Source: Kondoa subrosea (Eukaryota). From it: DNA of 41,220 nucleotides. The notes below the pieces were generated by a model, which was not told where the DNA came from, did not search any database, and saw only the letters and a program-made list of their open reading frames with translations. Where the stretch lies: the NCBI GenBank assembly GCA_039545335.1, contig BCIN01000005.1, positions 1,457,946 to 1,499,165 on the forward strand, given 5' to 3'. Of this stretch, positions 31,690 to 41,220 are shown in pieces. Position 1 is the first letter of the stretch, and each line of letters begins with the position of its first letter. A program made the translations under genes and the position numbers.

Positions 31690-31952
31690 CCTATGCATTG
31701 AGAATGCCCTGTCAACGGCAAATGTACATGTATATTAGTACCCATCGCGCCTAGCTCAAATACAAGACAATCAACTAATTTGATCGCAAAGACCGGCCTA
31801 AACACACGAGCATCGTATTTAGAAGTCACAAATATGCACTGAAAAGGTGGTATTGGAGTCAGCAAGGACAAAGAACACATCGTCTTACCTATTGGCAAAA
31901 CCGTCAAAGCTTCAGCAAGTCATCCATGGCTTTCCGTCCCAGCTTCGCAGTA

Positions 31953-33029
31953 CTACAGCTGCCAAGCCATTTCAAGCAGCTCTTCATACTTGAATTCCCT
32001 GCCCGTCTTGCCTTGAAAGTCTGCCAGCAGTCTTCTTTCCTTTGACCTTTCGTTCTTCTCAGCATAGAACCGCTGCAGACGCATGCATAAAAGTTGAGCA
32101 TCGGTTTGAGAGATGAGCTGTCCAGATCCTGAATCACTTGCTGTGATTTCACCACGAAGCAGAACGATACCATGCGAAATGGCAAGATCAGTGTAATGTG
32201 TTAGAATGAGGGCTGGTTGAGCAAAAGTCCCGTGGCTCTTGTACGATGCTAAAGAAGTAAAGAGAACAGTAGTCGTTTCTGGCGTGCTTGCCGGCATGGC
32301 TGAAGGAGAAGGAACGAATGCCCATTCGAGAAAGATGTTTTCCGCTCCAGTTGTTCCGTCAGATGTTTCTCGAGGCAGAGGAAGGATGAAGCGCAGATTC
32401 TCGCGAGCTATTGCGGTCATTCGCCTGTAGGTTTCGACGGGGATGACGGCGCCTAGTTTCGTTGTTGATTTGGCTGAAGCATGGTAAGCTTTCCAAAGGG
32501 CAGAGATCTCCTCGGCTGAAGGTGCAGGATGCCTTGTGAGAAGCTTCTGTAGGTCTACGATGTCCGAAAGAGGCTATAGATACCTTGAGCTCGGCTGAAA
32601 CTGGAGAGCGGACTGCTGACCTTGATGCCGCTCTTGCTCTTCGCTTGATCGATCCCGCTCGGCAATGAAGGAGCTACAACAGCAGAAGGTATCTGTTGCA
32701 GAGATGAATTGCTTGATAGCTTGGGAGCCGGATTGAATGGCTTGATTGGTTTCACTTTTTCAGCTTGACGAGCCTTGTCCTTCAACGTCTGCAAGTCTAC
32801 TCCTTTCCTGGCGTCCAGATGAACAAGAACTCAAGATAAATATGAAATTCACTCACGCCTTTGCCGCAGCCTCCAGCGCCTGCCCATACTTCTGTTCATA
32901 CTGTTGCCGTTTTTGAGCTATCCTTTCCCGTGAACCTATCAATGCCTCTGGCACGTCAGTGGTCAAACATCGGAAGCTGCTGCATCTCTTGCAGGATAGA
33001 AGTGGTCGATATAACAGGCTTGTGATCAT
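31953..33029 (-). CDS. ATP11: Mitochondrial F1-ATPase assembly chaperone Atp11
   Basis: EISALWKAYH..LGAVIPVETY..FILPLPR..FLEW..TVLFTSLASYK..QPALILTHYTDL..GIVLLRGEI..DAQLL..LQRFY. Presequence-like start MITSLLYRPLLSCKR. Confidence 0.92.
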
Positions 33030-34190
33030 CGTGTCTTGACAACCCGCTGATTGGCTTCAAGCTACAAGAGGTGGCTTTCTGCAACTTGCTTACAGATGAG
33101 CAGAGTCCGCAACAGTTAAGCATGATCATGAAATCATCTACACAAATAAATAACTCTCGCTTGCTACTAAGACTTCCGCTGCCTTGCTCAAGCTTGAATT
33201 CACTCTCCACTCTGCCTTCCAGCTACTACAATGATCGAATCCAGCTCGCCCTTTGCTTCTAAGCTTGCGACTTACTCCTACTGATAGCTTTGGCTCGAGA
33301 GAAAAGCACTGCTCGAGACGGAAGACTGCTTGCTGCTGCCAGGGCCTTGACTGAACTACACCGATTTGCCCTTTTACTGTTGACTGCTCTACTTGCGCGA
33401 CTGCTTTCACGACTTTTCTCGGAAGACTTGAAGACTCTACTCGCTTACACTCTACTCTTCAAAGCTTGCTGACGGGCAGCTCGCGCTTTTCTTTCCCTTT
33501 CTGCCTGACTGATCAAAGATGCTTGCTGTCAGCTTCTTCTGCTCTCAGGTCTACTGCTACCGATCAAGATCAGACTGACAAGGAGCTCTACGGAAGCTGA
33601 GACACAAGACTCTGAACTCAAGCTCTATCCGGCTTTCATCTCTACCTTTTGCAAAAACATCTCCTCACCGGTTTCTGCTCTGCTATTTCGACAGACTATC
33701 TTATGCTCAGCTCTGGCTTACTCCCGCTCGCTCGAGCGCGGCACTTGACTGAAGCTGAGCACTGAAAGCTACACCTCTTGTTTGACAAGCTGCGACGCAC
33801 TTTCTTGCTGCTTTACCACTTGCTACTTCGCNATTTGATTTGACGCACAGAAGATAGCTTTCAGCTAGACTTTCTTCTGTCTTTGCAGGCTCGACTTTGA
33901 CCTGCTACTTTGTGTGTAACATCTTGAAGCTGCGTTTCGGTCGATGACGAACTTGAAGGCTCGGCGCTTCCAAGCAACAGCAACTGCAGGACACAAATGA
34001 AGACTGGCTAGAGCGAAGGTCTTACTAGTCATAGGACTTTGTTGCTTTTTTCCAAGCTTTTGCAAAGGAAGAGTTGAAGTATGAGAGGTAAAATGCGAGC
34101 GTGATCTACAGGTGTGCTGGAAGCTGAGTCTTGTATCAGAGGAAGATAGTTGAGTTTGAAGCTGGAGGTGAGTATCTCAGGGAGATAGTT

Positions 34191-34249
34191 GGATTGTATC
34201 GAAACTAGTTGCAAGGTAGTTTCGCTAATGCTTCTTCAGTCGATAATCC
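34191..34249 (-). ncRNA. Type I hammerhead ribozyme (PLE-associated type)
   Basis: Minus strand: GGAUU-AUCGA [CUGAAGA A] GC-AUUA-GC [GAAA] CUA-CCUUGCAAC-UAG [UU^] UCGAU-AC-AAUCC. Full catalytic core, 10-bp stem I with an AC bulge, 2-bp stem II, short stem III, GUU cleavage triplet. Confidence 0.8.
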
Positions 34250-35049
34250 GAAAGACAATTGAGATGAAAAGACTCTCAAGCAAGTTTCTGAGCCTTAAGT
34301 ATGCGACATTGCAAAATATTGTTATTCTATTGTGCTCTGGACACGTGCAGTATAAGCTCATAAACAGCCTGTTTGCTGCTATGAATACTCTGAATAACAT
34401 CTGTAGTCCCATTGAAGAGCCAGCTATGTTTTTTGCTGTGAAGTCAGTGACTCTCTTCCTGTATTGACGGTGTGGTCTCAGGGATCAATGTAATAGCTAT
34501 GTGTGTAATGACTTCATTGTACTGTGTCTGCTCTCATGAGGCAATAGCTCTGTTCAAAGCAGATTGCTCGAATTCTTGTTTGCACTCGAACCGTCATGTC
34601 TCGTGAATACCTTGACTGCAAGTAGTCTGTATTGCTTCAAGATGGATTATACCTGACATGTAGAGTCATTTCCTCGAGTCTCCGGCTTTATGAGCTCTTG
34701 AACTTTGAGAGAAACTTTGGGTTGTGTAAAAAGTGATGGAAGGGTGTAATATGAAGCTGCTCTGGCCAGATCGTGACAAGCTCTGATGCGCACATCAGTA
34801 TCAGATCAGGTAAGGAGTTATTGTGTTGAAAGATGTCAACCTGACATCTCCCACTCCTTGGACAGTCTCCACTAGCTGTTTGCTCGTCTTTGATGGAGTC
34901 AACGCGTAAGAACCTCCTTTGCGCGATGTATGCTTCCTTCATCATGTCCTATTAGCGAACTCTGATGATCTCTGTGAGACAGCATTATATCTTTTGAACA
35001 GCCGCTATGTTCAGGTTGTTCTATATTCCAGTGGACTTCAATAAGGAAA

Positions 35050-36437: not shown

Positions 36438-37397
36438 TTACTCTTGCTGCAGATTGTCTAGCTTCGCCATTATATCTTTATGCCCAGTACTCAGATGCAT
36501 AAAGCATCTCCAGCCATGTCCCATCTGGTCTAGCACCTTGGCTTTATGAATCTTATCAAATTTCTTCGACTTGCAAAGATTGCATTCGTCACCTTGCTTC
36601 CCGTACCAGTTTGGCCAGCGTGCATTGTTTGGTTGATTGATCAGATGTACGTTCTCATCTGTGATTCGCAAGCCTTTGTGCTGATTCAAGCGGCTTCTCC
36701 AGACCTTTTGCTCTTGAACAGAGAATTGATCTTTGCTGTTTGCCTGATAGAACGAACGCTTTCTAGTAGCAGTAGCATTGGTCATGTCTTTCAAAGGTGT
36801 GTCCTCGAGCTTTCCCTCCTTGGTCATAGTTGAGAATATGTCCAAGCAGGCTTCTGTGTCTGCTAAAGCTGAGTGAGCATTCTTTAGCTCTTTACCGGTA
36901 TAGTACATGAGAGCTGTGCTCAAATTTCTTTTGATACAGTCCTTCTGAAAGCTTTGGAACAGATCTGTAATGATGCAAGAATCGATGTTGTGCGATACTT
37001 TGCTTCTGTTCATTTCTGCTCTCAGGAGAGGTAAGTCAAAAGCTTCAATGTTGTACCCTACTAGATTGCAGTCTCTGAAGACAGGTACTAGTTGTTGGGC
37101 TATTGATTTGAAGCTTGGGCATTGCTTCACGTCGTGATTTGTGATTCTATGAATCTTAGTGCTTTCTTCAGGTATGTTCACCTGTGGATTGAAGCGTATC
37201 GTTTTAGTCTGACGTTTCCCATTAGGGTGCAATTGAATTACTGTAGGTTCTACTATCCTGTCTTTCTGACAATCTAATCCTGTTGTTTCTAGATCAAAGA
37301 TGACTGTTCGTCTCTTGATTTGGAGATTATGTCTGGCATTCTTAAGCTTTATTCGTTCTAAGACTTCTGTTTTGGCAAGATCTTTATGCTTGGTCAA
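36438..37397 (-). CDS. DEDDh (DnaQ / Pol III epsilon-like) 3'-5' exonuclease with a Cys/His-rich C-terminal extension
   Basis: ExoI VIFDLETTGL..DRIVE, ExoII LVGYNIEAFDLPLL, ExoIII AHSALADTEAC. Tail ECNLCK..H..C..H..H. No AUG upstream of ExoI in this frame, so the true start is probably in ORF 37394-37591. Confidence 0.9.
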   Translation of the reverse strand: MTKHKDLAKTEVLERIKLKNARHNLQIKRRTVIFDLETTGLDCQKDRIVEPTVIQLHPNGKRQTKTIRFNPQVNIPEESTKIHRITNHDVKQCPSFKSIAQQLVPVFRDCNLVGYNIEAFDLPLLRAEMNRSKVSHNIDSCIITDLFQSFQKDCIKRNLSTALMYYTGKELKNAHSALADTEACLDIFSTMTKEGKLEDTPLKDMTNATATRKRSFYQANSKDQFSVQEQKVWRSRLNQHKGLRITDENVHLINQPNNARWPNWYGKQGDECNLCKSKKFDKIHKAKVLDQMGHGWRCFMHLSTGHKDIMAKLDNLQQE

Positions 37398-37686
37398 GTT
37401 TGGAACAAGGTCTTTTCACTTTGGCTCGGTTCAGTGCATGCATACAGCGGAGCTGCAAGGTGTGCTGTGAGCTCTAGACTCTGGGGCTGTTTCTGATTCT
37501 CTTCTTTCAATAGTGTATATGTTTTCTCCTTCCAGGCTGTGAGCCTTTCTTCAAACAATCCTTTAATCATTGATGTCCTGATAATGATCATCAGATTGAT
37601 TGATTATCAAGGTGTGTGTTTATATAGTGTCATGTTTTTGTTGTCTGGTTTACATTAATATGAGCTTATCTTTCTAGTACGATGTA

Positions 37687-40377
37687 TTACAATCCCTTTA
37701 GCTTTCGCGCGGTAAGTATTCTACGGTTCAGTTTTGGAGGTAGCGAAACACACATAGTGATCTTTTCTTTGGATAAGAAGCTAGGTATGTTTGGTTCTTT
37801 GGCTATGGCCTCTGAGAATTGGTCCAAAGCCTTTCTGACTTCTTTAGTATCTATAGCAGGATTCTGTTGGAGATGGAAGAGTAAAGGTATGTCCTTTATC
37901 TTTTCCTTAGGTTCTAGATATGCTGCTCGTCTCGCATAGTCGACACCTGAAAGCGCTTTGGAAATGAATTTGTCAGAGTAGCCTCTGCTCTTCAGTCTTT
38001 CTCTGAATAAGACTAGTAAGCTTTCGTAGTCTTCTCTGCATGAGTTCGTTCTAACGTATCTTATAGCTTCGCCTTTAATGAAGGCTGCCTTCATTGCATC
38101 GTTGTGATAGGACTTTGCTGGCAGGTAAGAATATCTGTTCATTGGCTTTTGATATGTCCTGATGTCTAGCTTTCCTTCTTTTCGGAATCTTTTGCCTGTA
38201 CTAATCTCTAGATCAAGCATGATAGCTCTGTCCTTGGAGATATCAGAGGTGAGTTTGATAGTCTTCTCGAGTGCATTTAGTTCCTTGAAGAACTGTTGTA
38301 CTTGCTCGTGAGTGCATATAAAGAGAGCAAATATATCATCTACAAAGCGTCTGTATAGTTTTAATAGTCCGCTCTTTTGCCATTTTTCGACAAGTGCCTT
38401 TTCAACCTCTTCCATGAACAGATTCGCCAGATTTACAGCGCAAGGAGTGCCCATGGCGGTGCCTCCCTTTTGTCTATATACCTTGCCTAAGAAGATGTTG
38501 TAGTTGCTTTGCATTGTTATCCTCAAGGCTTCACAAAGAAATCTCAATCTATTAGAGTCGTATCCTTCTTCCTGGAGTCTAGCAGCAATGAGACTTATAG
38601 CTCTATCTGTTGGTATGTTTGGGTACATTGCTTCTATATCAGCTGTCGCTAACCATAGGTCTGCATTGCGTTCTAGCGTTGTAGCTAATTGGCTGTCATG
38701 TTCAATAATGCCAATCAACTGGCTGCTGTCTCTAAGACATATTGATGATCTCTTCACATACGGCGCAAGTTCTACATCGATCCACTGGGAGAGTGCGTAA
38801 GTAGACCATCCGCAAGATGGTGTTATAGGTCTGCTTGCTATCTTTGGAGGTTTGTGGATTTTTGCCAGTATGTAAAAGCGAATGAGCTGATCTGGAGTAT
38901 CCTTTGTTATCCAGGCTCTTTCTTCTTCTGTTAGTTCCTTATAGGAATCGACAAGTCTCGAAATTGATTTTCTTACATTGAACAGTATGACATCCTGGGG
39001 TAGGTCTATTTGTTCGTAAGTGCTCTCATCTTGAAGATGTTTATGGCATTCGCTGATGTACCATGTAGTATCTACTGCTGTATATCCTAAGTTTTTGTCA
39101 GCAGCAATGATGAGAATTTCGTCATCGAGTAGCAGCTTTTCTAAAGCTTGATGGCTAGCAATGGGTAGGTTTCTCTCCTCCTGTTTAGTTTCAGGCAGTT
39201 TACGTAGTGCCTTGCGTAGGCAGTTTAACTGGGTCTCTACGAAGCTGTCTTGCGGTTCTGGATGGAAAGACGATCTTTTCCTCCATCTCGAGGGCGGAAT
39301 GATCATGTCCTCAACCTCTGCTTCTTATTCGGGTGAGTTATACTCTACGTGAAACATTTGACGAAGTCTGATCATGCGTTTAAAGCGCTGGAATCCGCTT
39401 TCAAGTGAGCTTTTATCTCTTCTTGGTATATCAATGAATCTTAGCCCCATGGCTAGAGCTTCTTTCTCCAGATCTGTGAGTTTCCTAGTAGTCAGGTCAT
39501 TGACTTGTATGTCTTTGACTCCTAGTGTCAATAGGTTATTTCTCGCTTTGGTCTCTTCGACTGTGTAAGTCTTCTTTGCTCCTCTGCGTCCTCGTCCTCT
39601 ACGTTTGGAAGAAATAGTACTGATAGCATTGTCCGTAGAATTACTACTACAAGGGGCTGTGAACTCTATGGTCTGCCCCTCCCTCTGCCTCTGCCTCCTC
39701 TGAATGTTGGGGTTTGAGAGTGATGGTGAGTCTTGGCTTTCTTGTGAGTTCCGTCGTTCTGACGATGGTGATTCTCCTTTCTCTTCGAAGGACCAGCAAT
39801 CTAATAGTGATTTAGCTGGGTTGTGTGTTTGTGAAACCGAATGGCATACTGGAGCGCTATGTCTCAAGGCAAGTTCTTCCTTTGCCTTGTTGACCCTCTT
39901 CTCGAAGCTTTCTGATTCCAACTTCCAGGCAGTATCTGCTTCCTTCAAGGCTATTTCCTTTACGATATTGGCTTCCCCTTGCAACATCAAGAAGACTGCT
40001 TCTATGATTCCATCGATCTCGCTATCCCAAGTATCTGCTAGGCTTGCATCTACCAACCTTTTGCTTTCAATGACGGATTTGGCTTTCTTGTAGGTTACTT
40101 GAATGAAGTTTCCTGAAAGAATGTCGTTGATCTGCTTTTCTAGTTGCTCAGCACTGTGGCTGCAGATGATGTGCATGCGGGCTCTCTGGTATGTGGTCCA
40201 TAATTGAGCTGCTTGTTGGTCCAATTCTTCTCCTAGGCTCTTGATACCTGCATCTGGAGCGAAGATTGGAATAGAGGAGAGAACGAAATTTCCTTCTGTA
40301 GAGGATTGGTAGCGTTCTTTCCAGTGTGGCATACTAGAATGAGACTGTAGCAATAGATTAGTAAACATAGGCGACAT
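37687..40377 (-). pseudogene. Penelope-like reverse transcriptase (ORF1-RT frame, about 896 codons, one in-frame TAA at 39325-39327)
   Basis: PLE N-terminal motif NDLTTRKLT..E..AL..GLRF, ADKNLG, FYILAKIHK..SRPI, DIEAMYPNIP, GTAMGTPCAVNLANLFM, YRRFVDDIF, LDL, and thumb YQKPMNRYSYLP..SYH..FIKGEAIRY..RLKSRGY. ORFs 39325-40377 and 37687-39306 are in the same frame. No GIY-YIG found. Confidence 0.92.
39666..40377 (-). CDS. Predicted spliced ORF1 protein (helical/coiled-coil with a basic RGG tail)
   Basis: Removing intron 39801-39849 (GTATGC...GCTAAA...TTAG, 49 nt) gives ...KAKEELALRHSAP|IAGPSKRKENHHRQNDGTHKKAKTHHHSQTPTFRGGRGRGRGRP* (TAG 39666-39668). Confidence 0.65.
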
Positions 40378-41220
40378 TAGAGATAATGTTAGCCTACTCT
40401 TGACTTTTGCTCACTTCTCAATCCAAATACGATTATTTCCACATGACTGCAGACATAGGTGTATGTCCTACAATCCATTGTTCAGATTTCGTCTCAAAGG
40501 CTCTCGAGAGTGCCCTCTTAGATGACTGTGACTTACCAGAAAGGAATAAGGTAAAGGGTATGACCAACCAGCAGATACATCCACTGCATCACAAATGACT
40601 GATCAGTAATGGAACAAGATAGCAATGTGCGCGTATAGCTCACAAGTGCTTCAAGGCATGCGTGGAGGTAAGCTTCTCTTCAATCAAACCGCTTTCAAAC
40701 CACCTTCTTCTCCTCAATCATTCATTCTCACTGTTATCCTCATTCTCCGTTTCTTTGCTCTATCGAAGAAGTATCCGTGCAACACGATCATTACGTCCAA
40801 GCCTGTTCACAGCGTTCAGCATCAGTGCCTTACAACCTGTCAGTAAGTGAAGCCCGTACTGGAGAGCTNTCAATCTGAGCGTTGCAATCAGCTGAGTACT
40901 ATGTGTGTGAAGCAGTATAACGCACTTGAAGATACACATGACACTCAAGCAAGCAGAATAAAGTAATAGAAGCAANGGGANCAAGTGACATTGAGATTGA
41001 GTATNTGAGCGAGTGAACGGCATNANTNTCCAACGCGANCAGGTGNAGTAGCCATAATCCGAACGTTTCCAAAGTAGCAACAATCAATCCATATAGCTAT
41101 AGCTCATTGAGCGCCTTTGCCTGGAGCTGGATTTCTCTGCTTCTTTCTCATTCGTATTCCTGCTGTCTATTCACCAGCGGCGGGTATGTTCACATCCTCA
41201 ATAAGCAGAGGGTATAAAAA

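Follow-up and report, generated by a model that had tools for sequence, protein, structure and literature searches.

What hammerhead ribozymes do in Penelope-like elements (PLEs) is not yet settled (PMC8557442, PMC11167929), and PMC8557442 calls their function in these elements unclear. The locus described here raises the question in a concrete form. Within the window (the whole stretch of 41,220 nucleotides of Kondoa subrosea DNA that was analysed), a hammerhead-like motif accompanies a PLE-type reverse transcriptase (RT), and the original prediction was that the ribozyme may define the processed end of an element RNA of 6 kb or longer. Is the motif a hammerhead, does its predicted cut coincide with the end of the element and, if not, on which form of the RNA is the element copied?

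A type I hammerhead on the reverse transcriptase strand

Every hammerhead part that had been named was found on the minus strand, the strand of the RT (Table 1). The CUGANGA core, GAAA and the NUH triplet occur in the right order, and the topology is that of type I, with three stems, ends in stem I, closed loops II and III, and a G10.1–C11.1 pair. A bulge in stem I and a 4-nt loop II form a candidate tertiary contact; loop II is not conserved among relatives.

Table 1 Features of the element, its hammerhead motif and its surroundings (positions are those of the window unless another contig is named)
Feature	Position	Strand	Details
Subtelomeric duplication, host DNA under the element	31911-34075	.	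includes ATP11 gene
C5 junction	34068-34075	-	8-nt match to C-rich telomere strand; plus strand GAAGAGTT
Stretch duplicated on C2 (right end)	34070-34604	-	535 nt, 99.6% identical
Tail, cut site to inserted 3' end	34076-34202	-	126-127 nt, G-poor (10% G)
Imperfect tandem duplication in tail, just below stem I	34117-34193	-	about 35 nt
Type I hammerhead ribozyme motif	34249-34191	-	predicted cut 34203^34202
Stem I	5' strand 34249-34240; 3' strand 34202-34191	-	6 bp, 2-nt bulge, 4 bp
Core C3-A9, CUGAAGA	34239-34233	-	
Extra A between positions 9 and 10.1	34232	-	kept in 7/7 aligned motifs
Stem II, GC/GC	34231-34230 with 34225-34224	-	2 bp, G10.1-C11.1 and C-G; loop AUUA
GAAA	34223-34220	-	
Stem III	34220-34204	-	A15.1-U16.1 plus CUA/UAG (3 bp); 9-nt loop
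Palindrome UUGCAA in stem III loop	34214-34209	-	
GUU triplet	34205-34203	-	directly before predicted cut
DEDDh (DnaQ-like) 3'-5' exonuclease ORF	36438-37415	-	325 aa stop to stop
PLE-type reverse transcriptase	37687-39324	-	545 aa, DKN motif
N-terminal part of RT reading frame	39325-40323	-	split off by in-frame stop 39325-39327
Separate LTR-like repeat, starts TG	40324-41220	+	interrupts element's 5' part

Thermodynamic prediction gives a less favourable picture of the inner stems. Unconstrained folding of the region does not return the hammerhead, which at −6.5 kcal/mol lies 3.8 kcal/mol above the minimum-energy fold (−10.3 kcal/mol); the latter retains stem I and is without stems II and III. 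Pair probabilities are 0.58–0.99 for stem I and 0.03–0.09 for stems II and III, a competing inner fold of the motif reaches −9.5 kcal/mol, and isolated stem III is predicted to be unfolded.

The motif is the single descriptor match in the whole window. Across 300 dinucleotide shuffles, the descriptor matched six times at a loose setting (stem I ≥ 5, II ≥ 2 and III ≥ 2) and never at the observed stem lengths. The bare core pattern is common, with 3,543 matches genome-wide, and is hence uninformative; matches to a tighter core pattern are confined genome-wide to the two copies of the motif. The 80 viral-contig loci that share the 16-base core pattern served purely as a control, and none has the full fold.

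Searches with hammerhead models gave a divided answer: an Rfam scan returned no hammerhead match at E ≤ 1, whereas models built from PLE relatives placed the motif first. Because sequence-only alignments put stem III in the wrong place, these models were built up from a pair that aligns without gaps. Made from two distant relatives, a covariance model ranked the window motif top (E = 0.038), as did one from four relatives with the window excluded (25.2 bits, E = 3.7 × 10−4; next best score, 13.7 bits), these E-values being rough. The covariance model R2 failed to recover the hammerheads of the relatives L069 and L110.

That the resemblance is due to chance is hardly credible. The absence of an Rfam match, a thermodynamic z-score of only −1.7 for the hammerhead region and the commonness of the core pattern would speak for it; the shuffle control, the viral-contig control, the relative-built model, the covariation described below and the placement of the motif in the 3' repeat of a PLE all speak against it. 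At the level of sequence, the motif is thus confirmed as a real hammerhead, for which self-cleavage is predicted.

Hammerheads of related elements covary

The relatives examined are the best 80 of 453 loci from metagenomes whose RT resembles that of the window. Among these 80 loci the descriptor picks out 10 hammerheads, where shuffles run with the same descriptor lead one to expect 0.4; the count is partly tuned, the descriptor having been widened after some of the relatives' motifs had been seen. All 10 lie on the RT strand, which bears out the expected association with PLEs elsewhere among these best 80 of 453 loci.

In a structure-based comparison of the window motif with the hammerheads of its six most similar relatives (seven motifs), all core positions and the NUH triplet are kept in every motif. 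Pairs 1–5 of stem I are paired in 35 of 35 cells, with two or three pair types each and compensatory changes, and pairs 1–3 of stem III in 21 of 21 cells, with up to five pair types. A separate set of pair counts, taken from a model-fitted alignment, leans toward that model. The G–C and C–G pairs of stem II are invariant (7/7). Covariation is therefore seen with the six relatives, and within the genome there is none because the only two copies are nearly identical. The original placement of the hammerhead in the 3'-terminal region of the element, the putative pseudo-LTR, holds, and covarying hammerheads are present in its relatives.

Of the best 80 of 453 loci, 13 have, downstream of the RT, a homologue of the exonuclease encoded in the window. 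In a midpoint-rooted tree with FastTree local supports, from which six of the 80 loci were left out as too short (one exonuclease locus included), the other 12 form a single branch (support 1.0) and the window RT is its sister (0.94). This branch and the window belong to a part of the tree without GIY-YIG motif matches, separate from the GIY-YIG branch; two pairs of loci in the exonuclease branch are identical in the RT region. Four members of the branch have hammerheads (L034, L035, L036 and L038), seven other exonuclease loci stop 3 kb or less after the RT, and L042 and L040 have no convincing hammerhead in the 5 kb and 10 kb, respectively, downstream of the RT. In the four hammerheads, stem II is flanked by an additional A on each side, one following A9 and one preceding G12, and the latter is why the standard descriptor misses them.

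The surroundings of these four hammerheads are also alike. A TATA-like box lies 65–112 nt above the hammerhead core and a GTRAGT splice donor 13–25 nt below the cut, which may place the 3' tail within a retained intron. Neither signal occurs near the hammerheads of the window, L069 and L110. On the plus strand of the window, a perfect splice-donor-like word lies within the tail duplication (about 34165–34170). The tails of L036 and L038 finish with a CCCTAA-like stub, 153 and 159 nt past the cut, respectively, and recur upstream of the ORF as a pseudo-LTR; as they continue there into the 5' leader, internal priming is indicated. L035 and L110 assemble with terminal overlaps, as expected of head-to-tail units.

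Two relatives have a third ORF of 458–472 aa (L036:5187-6560 and L040:3053-4468) with a weak F-box-like match; the matches (E = 5 × 10−4 and 9 × 10−4) fall short of Pfam's cut-off, and the ORF is a possible host-manipulating cargo gene, judged from its sequence. An element with a GIY-YIG motif has a second hammerhead-like motif (L050:2922-2966), in which C replaces U4 and stem III is short and palindromic.

An interrupted element without an endonuclease

The element spans at least 6.2 kb, from 34077 to about 40323, in agreement with the predicted 6 kb or longer. Its exonuclease ORF matches Pfam RNase_T (3 × 10−22) and has the motifs D41/E43, D127 and H181/D186. The RT matches RVT_1 at 1 × 10−6, slightly below Pfam's cut-off, and its best homologues, mostly 760–940 aa in length, share 34–41% identity with it. 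As a PDB sequence search with the RT gave only weak RT matches and no telomerase, the PLE identity rests on motifs and homologues. We found no GIY-YIG endonuclease in the element, either as a Pfam match or as a motif match.

Similarity to homologues runs on across the in-frame stop that divides the RT frame, and relatives have one continuous protein of 760–940 aa. The stop is present too in public contigs, perhaps from the same sample. With its RT frame interrupted, this copy has probably lost its autonomy. The LTR-like repeat, which begins at about 40324, hides the true 5' end of the element, and no upstream pseudo-LTR (the 3'-end repeat upstream of the ORF) is visible in the window copy.

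The assembly contains a single copy of the RT and of the exonuclease. Genome size, gene content and the layout of the relatives suggest that the host is probably a fungus. Outside the RT, no DNA similarity to relatives was detected, the 2.2-kb stretch between the exonuclease and the hammerhead is without protein similarity to relatives, and the readable tip of contig C5, which contains the window, does not match the N-terminal profile of the relatives. A survey of sequencing runs found no RNA run with the element and two DNA runs, which perhaps derive from the source sample and are not independent.

The LTR-like repeat is 94% shared with the left end of C7 (L116:1-2658). There, it occurs in two copies on either side of a copia-type gag ORF of 350 aa, which contains a zinc-knuckle-like motif; pol is missing, and a purine-rich tract precedes the outer copy. 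The structure may be a non-autonomous LTR element with gag alone and a preference for chromosome ends.

Two junctions with telomere-like sequence

The right end of C5 is no more than 15 kb from the window, and the 5' end of the element faces the chromosome end. An alternating 10-mer (unit GAAGAGTTAGCGAGAGTTAT) is identified as the telomere repeat because it caps six contig ends: the starts of C1, C2, C3 and C6 and the ends of C2 and C4 (L009, L011, L014, L019, L023 and L025). A loose end in the contigs further supports this assignment, and short internal copies occur on C2, C3 and C5. The two 10-mers, AGAGTTAGCG and AGAGTTATGA, are unusual in having no G run and are irregularly mixed at the ends of C1, C2, C3, C4 and C6; the motif was not found in a literature search.

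On C5, the element follows GAAGAGTT inside a subtelomeric repeat. The duplicated host DNA under the element, ATP11 included, is shared with C2 (90–94%) and partly with C4. The subtelomeric repeat of C2 and C4 diverges from C5 at the junction, and so the chromosome was cut back there and the element added. Telomere repeats have been added at several points within this duplication. The C2 copy follows a 14-nt telomere tract and is 5'-truncated at 535 nt by terminal telomere repeats. Junctions, orientation and telomere cap are thus all read directly from the assembly.

Both copies join at telomere-like AGAGTT, 126–127 nt downstream of the predicted cut, and do so at two separate sites of the subtelomere. 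With just 6–8 nt matching the telomere strand, and three further 8-nt matches inside the element, it is the shared position of the junctions that counts as evidence. DNA template switching at the AGAGTT microhomology is another possible origin of the C2 copy and would leave one clear retrotransposition junction, that in the window.

Cleavage does not define the inserted end

Because both copies and the two relatives run past the cut, by 126–127 nt in the window element and by 153 and 159 nt in L036 and L038, cleavage does not define the inserted end. The expectation that the cut marks the end of the element fails at this point; the cut may still define the end of some RNA species. The hammerhead lies on the RT strand near the 3' end, which is what the expectation had in its favour. 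It is contradicted by the junctions, with their 126–159 nt of sequence past the cut, and RNA cut at this site would lose the telomere stub and, as is established for hammerhead cleavage, end in a cyclic phosphate, which makes this reading very improbable. The inserted DNA spans the hammerhead and the tail beyond it, so the site was whole in the template RNA, whether it had never been cut or had been rejoined. Reverse transcription must therefore start internally, on uncut or religated RNA.

We consider it probable that the motif is the pseudo-LTR hammerhead of an endonuclease-less (EN-minus), Coprina-like and telomere-attaching PLE with an added DEDDh exonuclease ORF, which uses internal stub priming and an uncut template, with cleavage as a side step. 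The priming, the cleavage and the form of the template, as we infer them, would work as follows. The eroded 3' end of a chromosome would pair with a stub of 6–8 nt inside the RNA that is complementary to the telomere and would prime the RT there; the RT would read back through the intact hammerhead site into the body of the element, and telomerase would cap the truncated product. Cleavage would be a side step, slower or gated by protein, by which precursor RNA is trimmed: the units of tandem arrays would be cut apart, and transcripts from the pseudo-LTR promoter would lose a short 5' leader. This last role is suggested by the four relatives in which the hammerhead lies 65–112 nt below the TATA-like box and 13–25 nt above the splice donor.

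An obligatory circle is a possible alternative, although we think it somewhat doubtful. The hammerhead would cut tandem precursors to unit length, the ends would be ligated, and the RT, primed at the telomere stub 126 nt beyond the ligated site, would copy across that site. This predicts the same genomic layout, which fits an uncut and a religated template equally. A circular template is proposed in PMC4209133, the terminal overlaps of L035 and L110 are those of head-to-tail units, and a promoter-proximal hammerhead together with a 3' hammerhead would give compatible ends. However, PMC11167929 reports that the main substrate in vitro is uncut RNA and that reads neither start nor end at the cut site; the lack of a visible upstream pseudo-LTR in the window copy also weighs against a circle.

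It is improbable that the hammerhead now serves mainly as a structure (a fold that binds protein or presents the stub) or is all but inactive as a monomer, or that it cleaves only as an intermolecular dimer through UUGCAA. The weak stems II and III, with the predicted unfolding of stem III and the inner fold described above, point in this direction, as do a self-duplex of −8.1 kcal/mol and the observation in PMC8557442 that successful PLE clades lack hammerheads, which may be passengers. The retention of the core and the NUH triplet in all seven motifs argues against it. As for the dimer that the original prediction had raised, the motif is not of the minimal dimeric type, having a real stem III of 4 bp; the palindrome is missing from three of the four closest relatives (L034, L036 and L038), and a 6-nt palindrome would occur in a 9-nt loop by chance in about 6% of cases (arithmetic for equal base use). 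The self-duplex is no better than those of the same three relatives (−8.2 to −13.1 kcal/mol), any stem III of these hammerheads can strand-swap with similar predicted energy, and fungal PLE hammerheads are described as stable monomers in PMC4209133. Some weight is left to a dimer because stem III of the window motif is weaker than that of its relatives. The hammerhead probably works as a monomer.

Relation to known telomeric PLEs

Hammerheads of fungal telomeric PLEs are already known: as PMC4209133 (Cervera and De la Pena 2014) describes, type I hammerheads occur in the flanking repeats of telomeric EN-deficient PLEs of fungi and protists, PLE hammerheads have a conserved base between positions 9 and 10.1, and that of a Serpula PLE cleaves as a monomer. 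Going by this text description, the window motif is similar in its type, its position in the flanking repeat of an EN-minus PLE, the extra base at 9/10.1, the G10.1–C11.1 pair, a real stem III and the lack of an evident loop–loop contact; it differs in that stem II has only 2 bp and stem III (4 bp) is weaker than the published 'large helix III'. The minimal dimeric hammerheads of metazoan PLEs, in the same source, have no stem III or one of 1–2 bp, a palindromic loop of 2–4 nt and a long stem II, unlike the 4-bp stem III, 9-nt loop and 2-bp stem II found here.

Athena and Coprina attach to telomere overhangs and have reverse-complement repeats adjoining their hammerheads (PMC8557442), and a fungal Coprina family lies between telomere repeats (PMC13159263). 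Several traits of EN-minus telomeric PLEs of the Coprina/Athena type are present in the window element: a DKN RT, no GIY-YIG domain and chromosome-end copies, of which the truncated one on C2 is capped by telomere repeats. A telomere-complementary 3' junction is found at both sites, at 6–8 nt a short match that rests on position. As Coprina is described in these two sources, the element resembles it in its DKN-type RT without GIY-YIG, its chromosome-end site, its telomere-ward 5' end and, in the C2 copy, telomere repeats at both junctions; this likeness is by description, the RT tree holding unnamed loci only. It differs in its downstream DEDDh exonuclease ORF, to which two relatives add the weak F-box-like ORF, and in the alternating 10-mers of its host's telomeres. 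A literature search yielded no paper on the exonuclease-bearing clade; papers of 2007 and 2017 from the Arkhipova laboratory may pre-empt the points about the exonuclease and the tail. The available text of bioRxiv 10.64898/2026.07.22.740005 adds nothing on fungi.

PMC6431247 describes the terminons of bdelloid rotifers, in which the exonuclease is of the DEDDy type and a telomere stretch follows the hammerhead directly. Shared features are an EN-minus RT, an accessory DEDD exonuclease, a 3' hammerhead with a telomere-complementary stretch and 5' truncation by telomere repeats. Terminons, however, reach 40 kb with multiple ORFs, whereas 6.2 kb of the window element are visible and its relatives measure about 8–11 kb; the stub that directly follows the terminon hammerhead is 126–159 nt away in the window element and two relatives. 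Identity with terminons was rejected on the visible 6.2 kb and on the DEDDh, rather than DEDDy, motifs.

For the anole Poseidon element PAc, PMC11167929 reports an internal RT start, a hammerhead that needs protein and cleavage that is dispensable for insertion in vitro. Reverse transcription in PAc starts downstream of the hammerhead and the tail is left in genomic copies, as in the window element; PAc is equipped with a GIY-YIG endonuclease and its priming involves no homology, whereas the window element would prime by telomere homology.

A wider scheme, which we regard as unlikely, would join these features in a small fungal terminon clade with an RT, a DEDDh exonuclease and sometimes F-box-like cargo. 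A hammerhead below the pseudo-LTR promoter would make a unit-length, intron-retaining circular RNA, primed 126–159 nt past the ligation by a stub that tracks the telomere repeat of the host (here the alternating 10-mer), and the exonuclease would trim the chromosome end to a matching site.

The window hammerhead leaves knowledge of the ribozyme class unchanged. For telomeric PLEs it contributes two exactly placed junctions with an unusual telomere repeat and a cut-to-end distance of 126–159 nt in three different elements, which make the locus a small test case for uncut versus circular templates and for priming by telomere homology.
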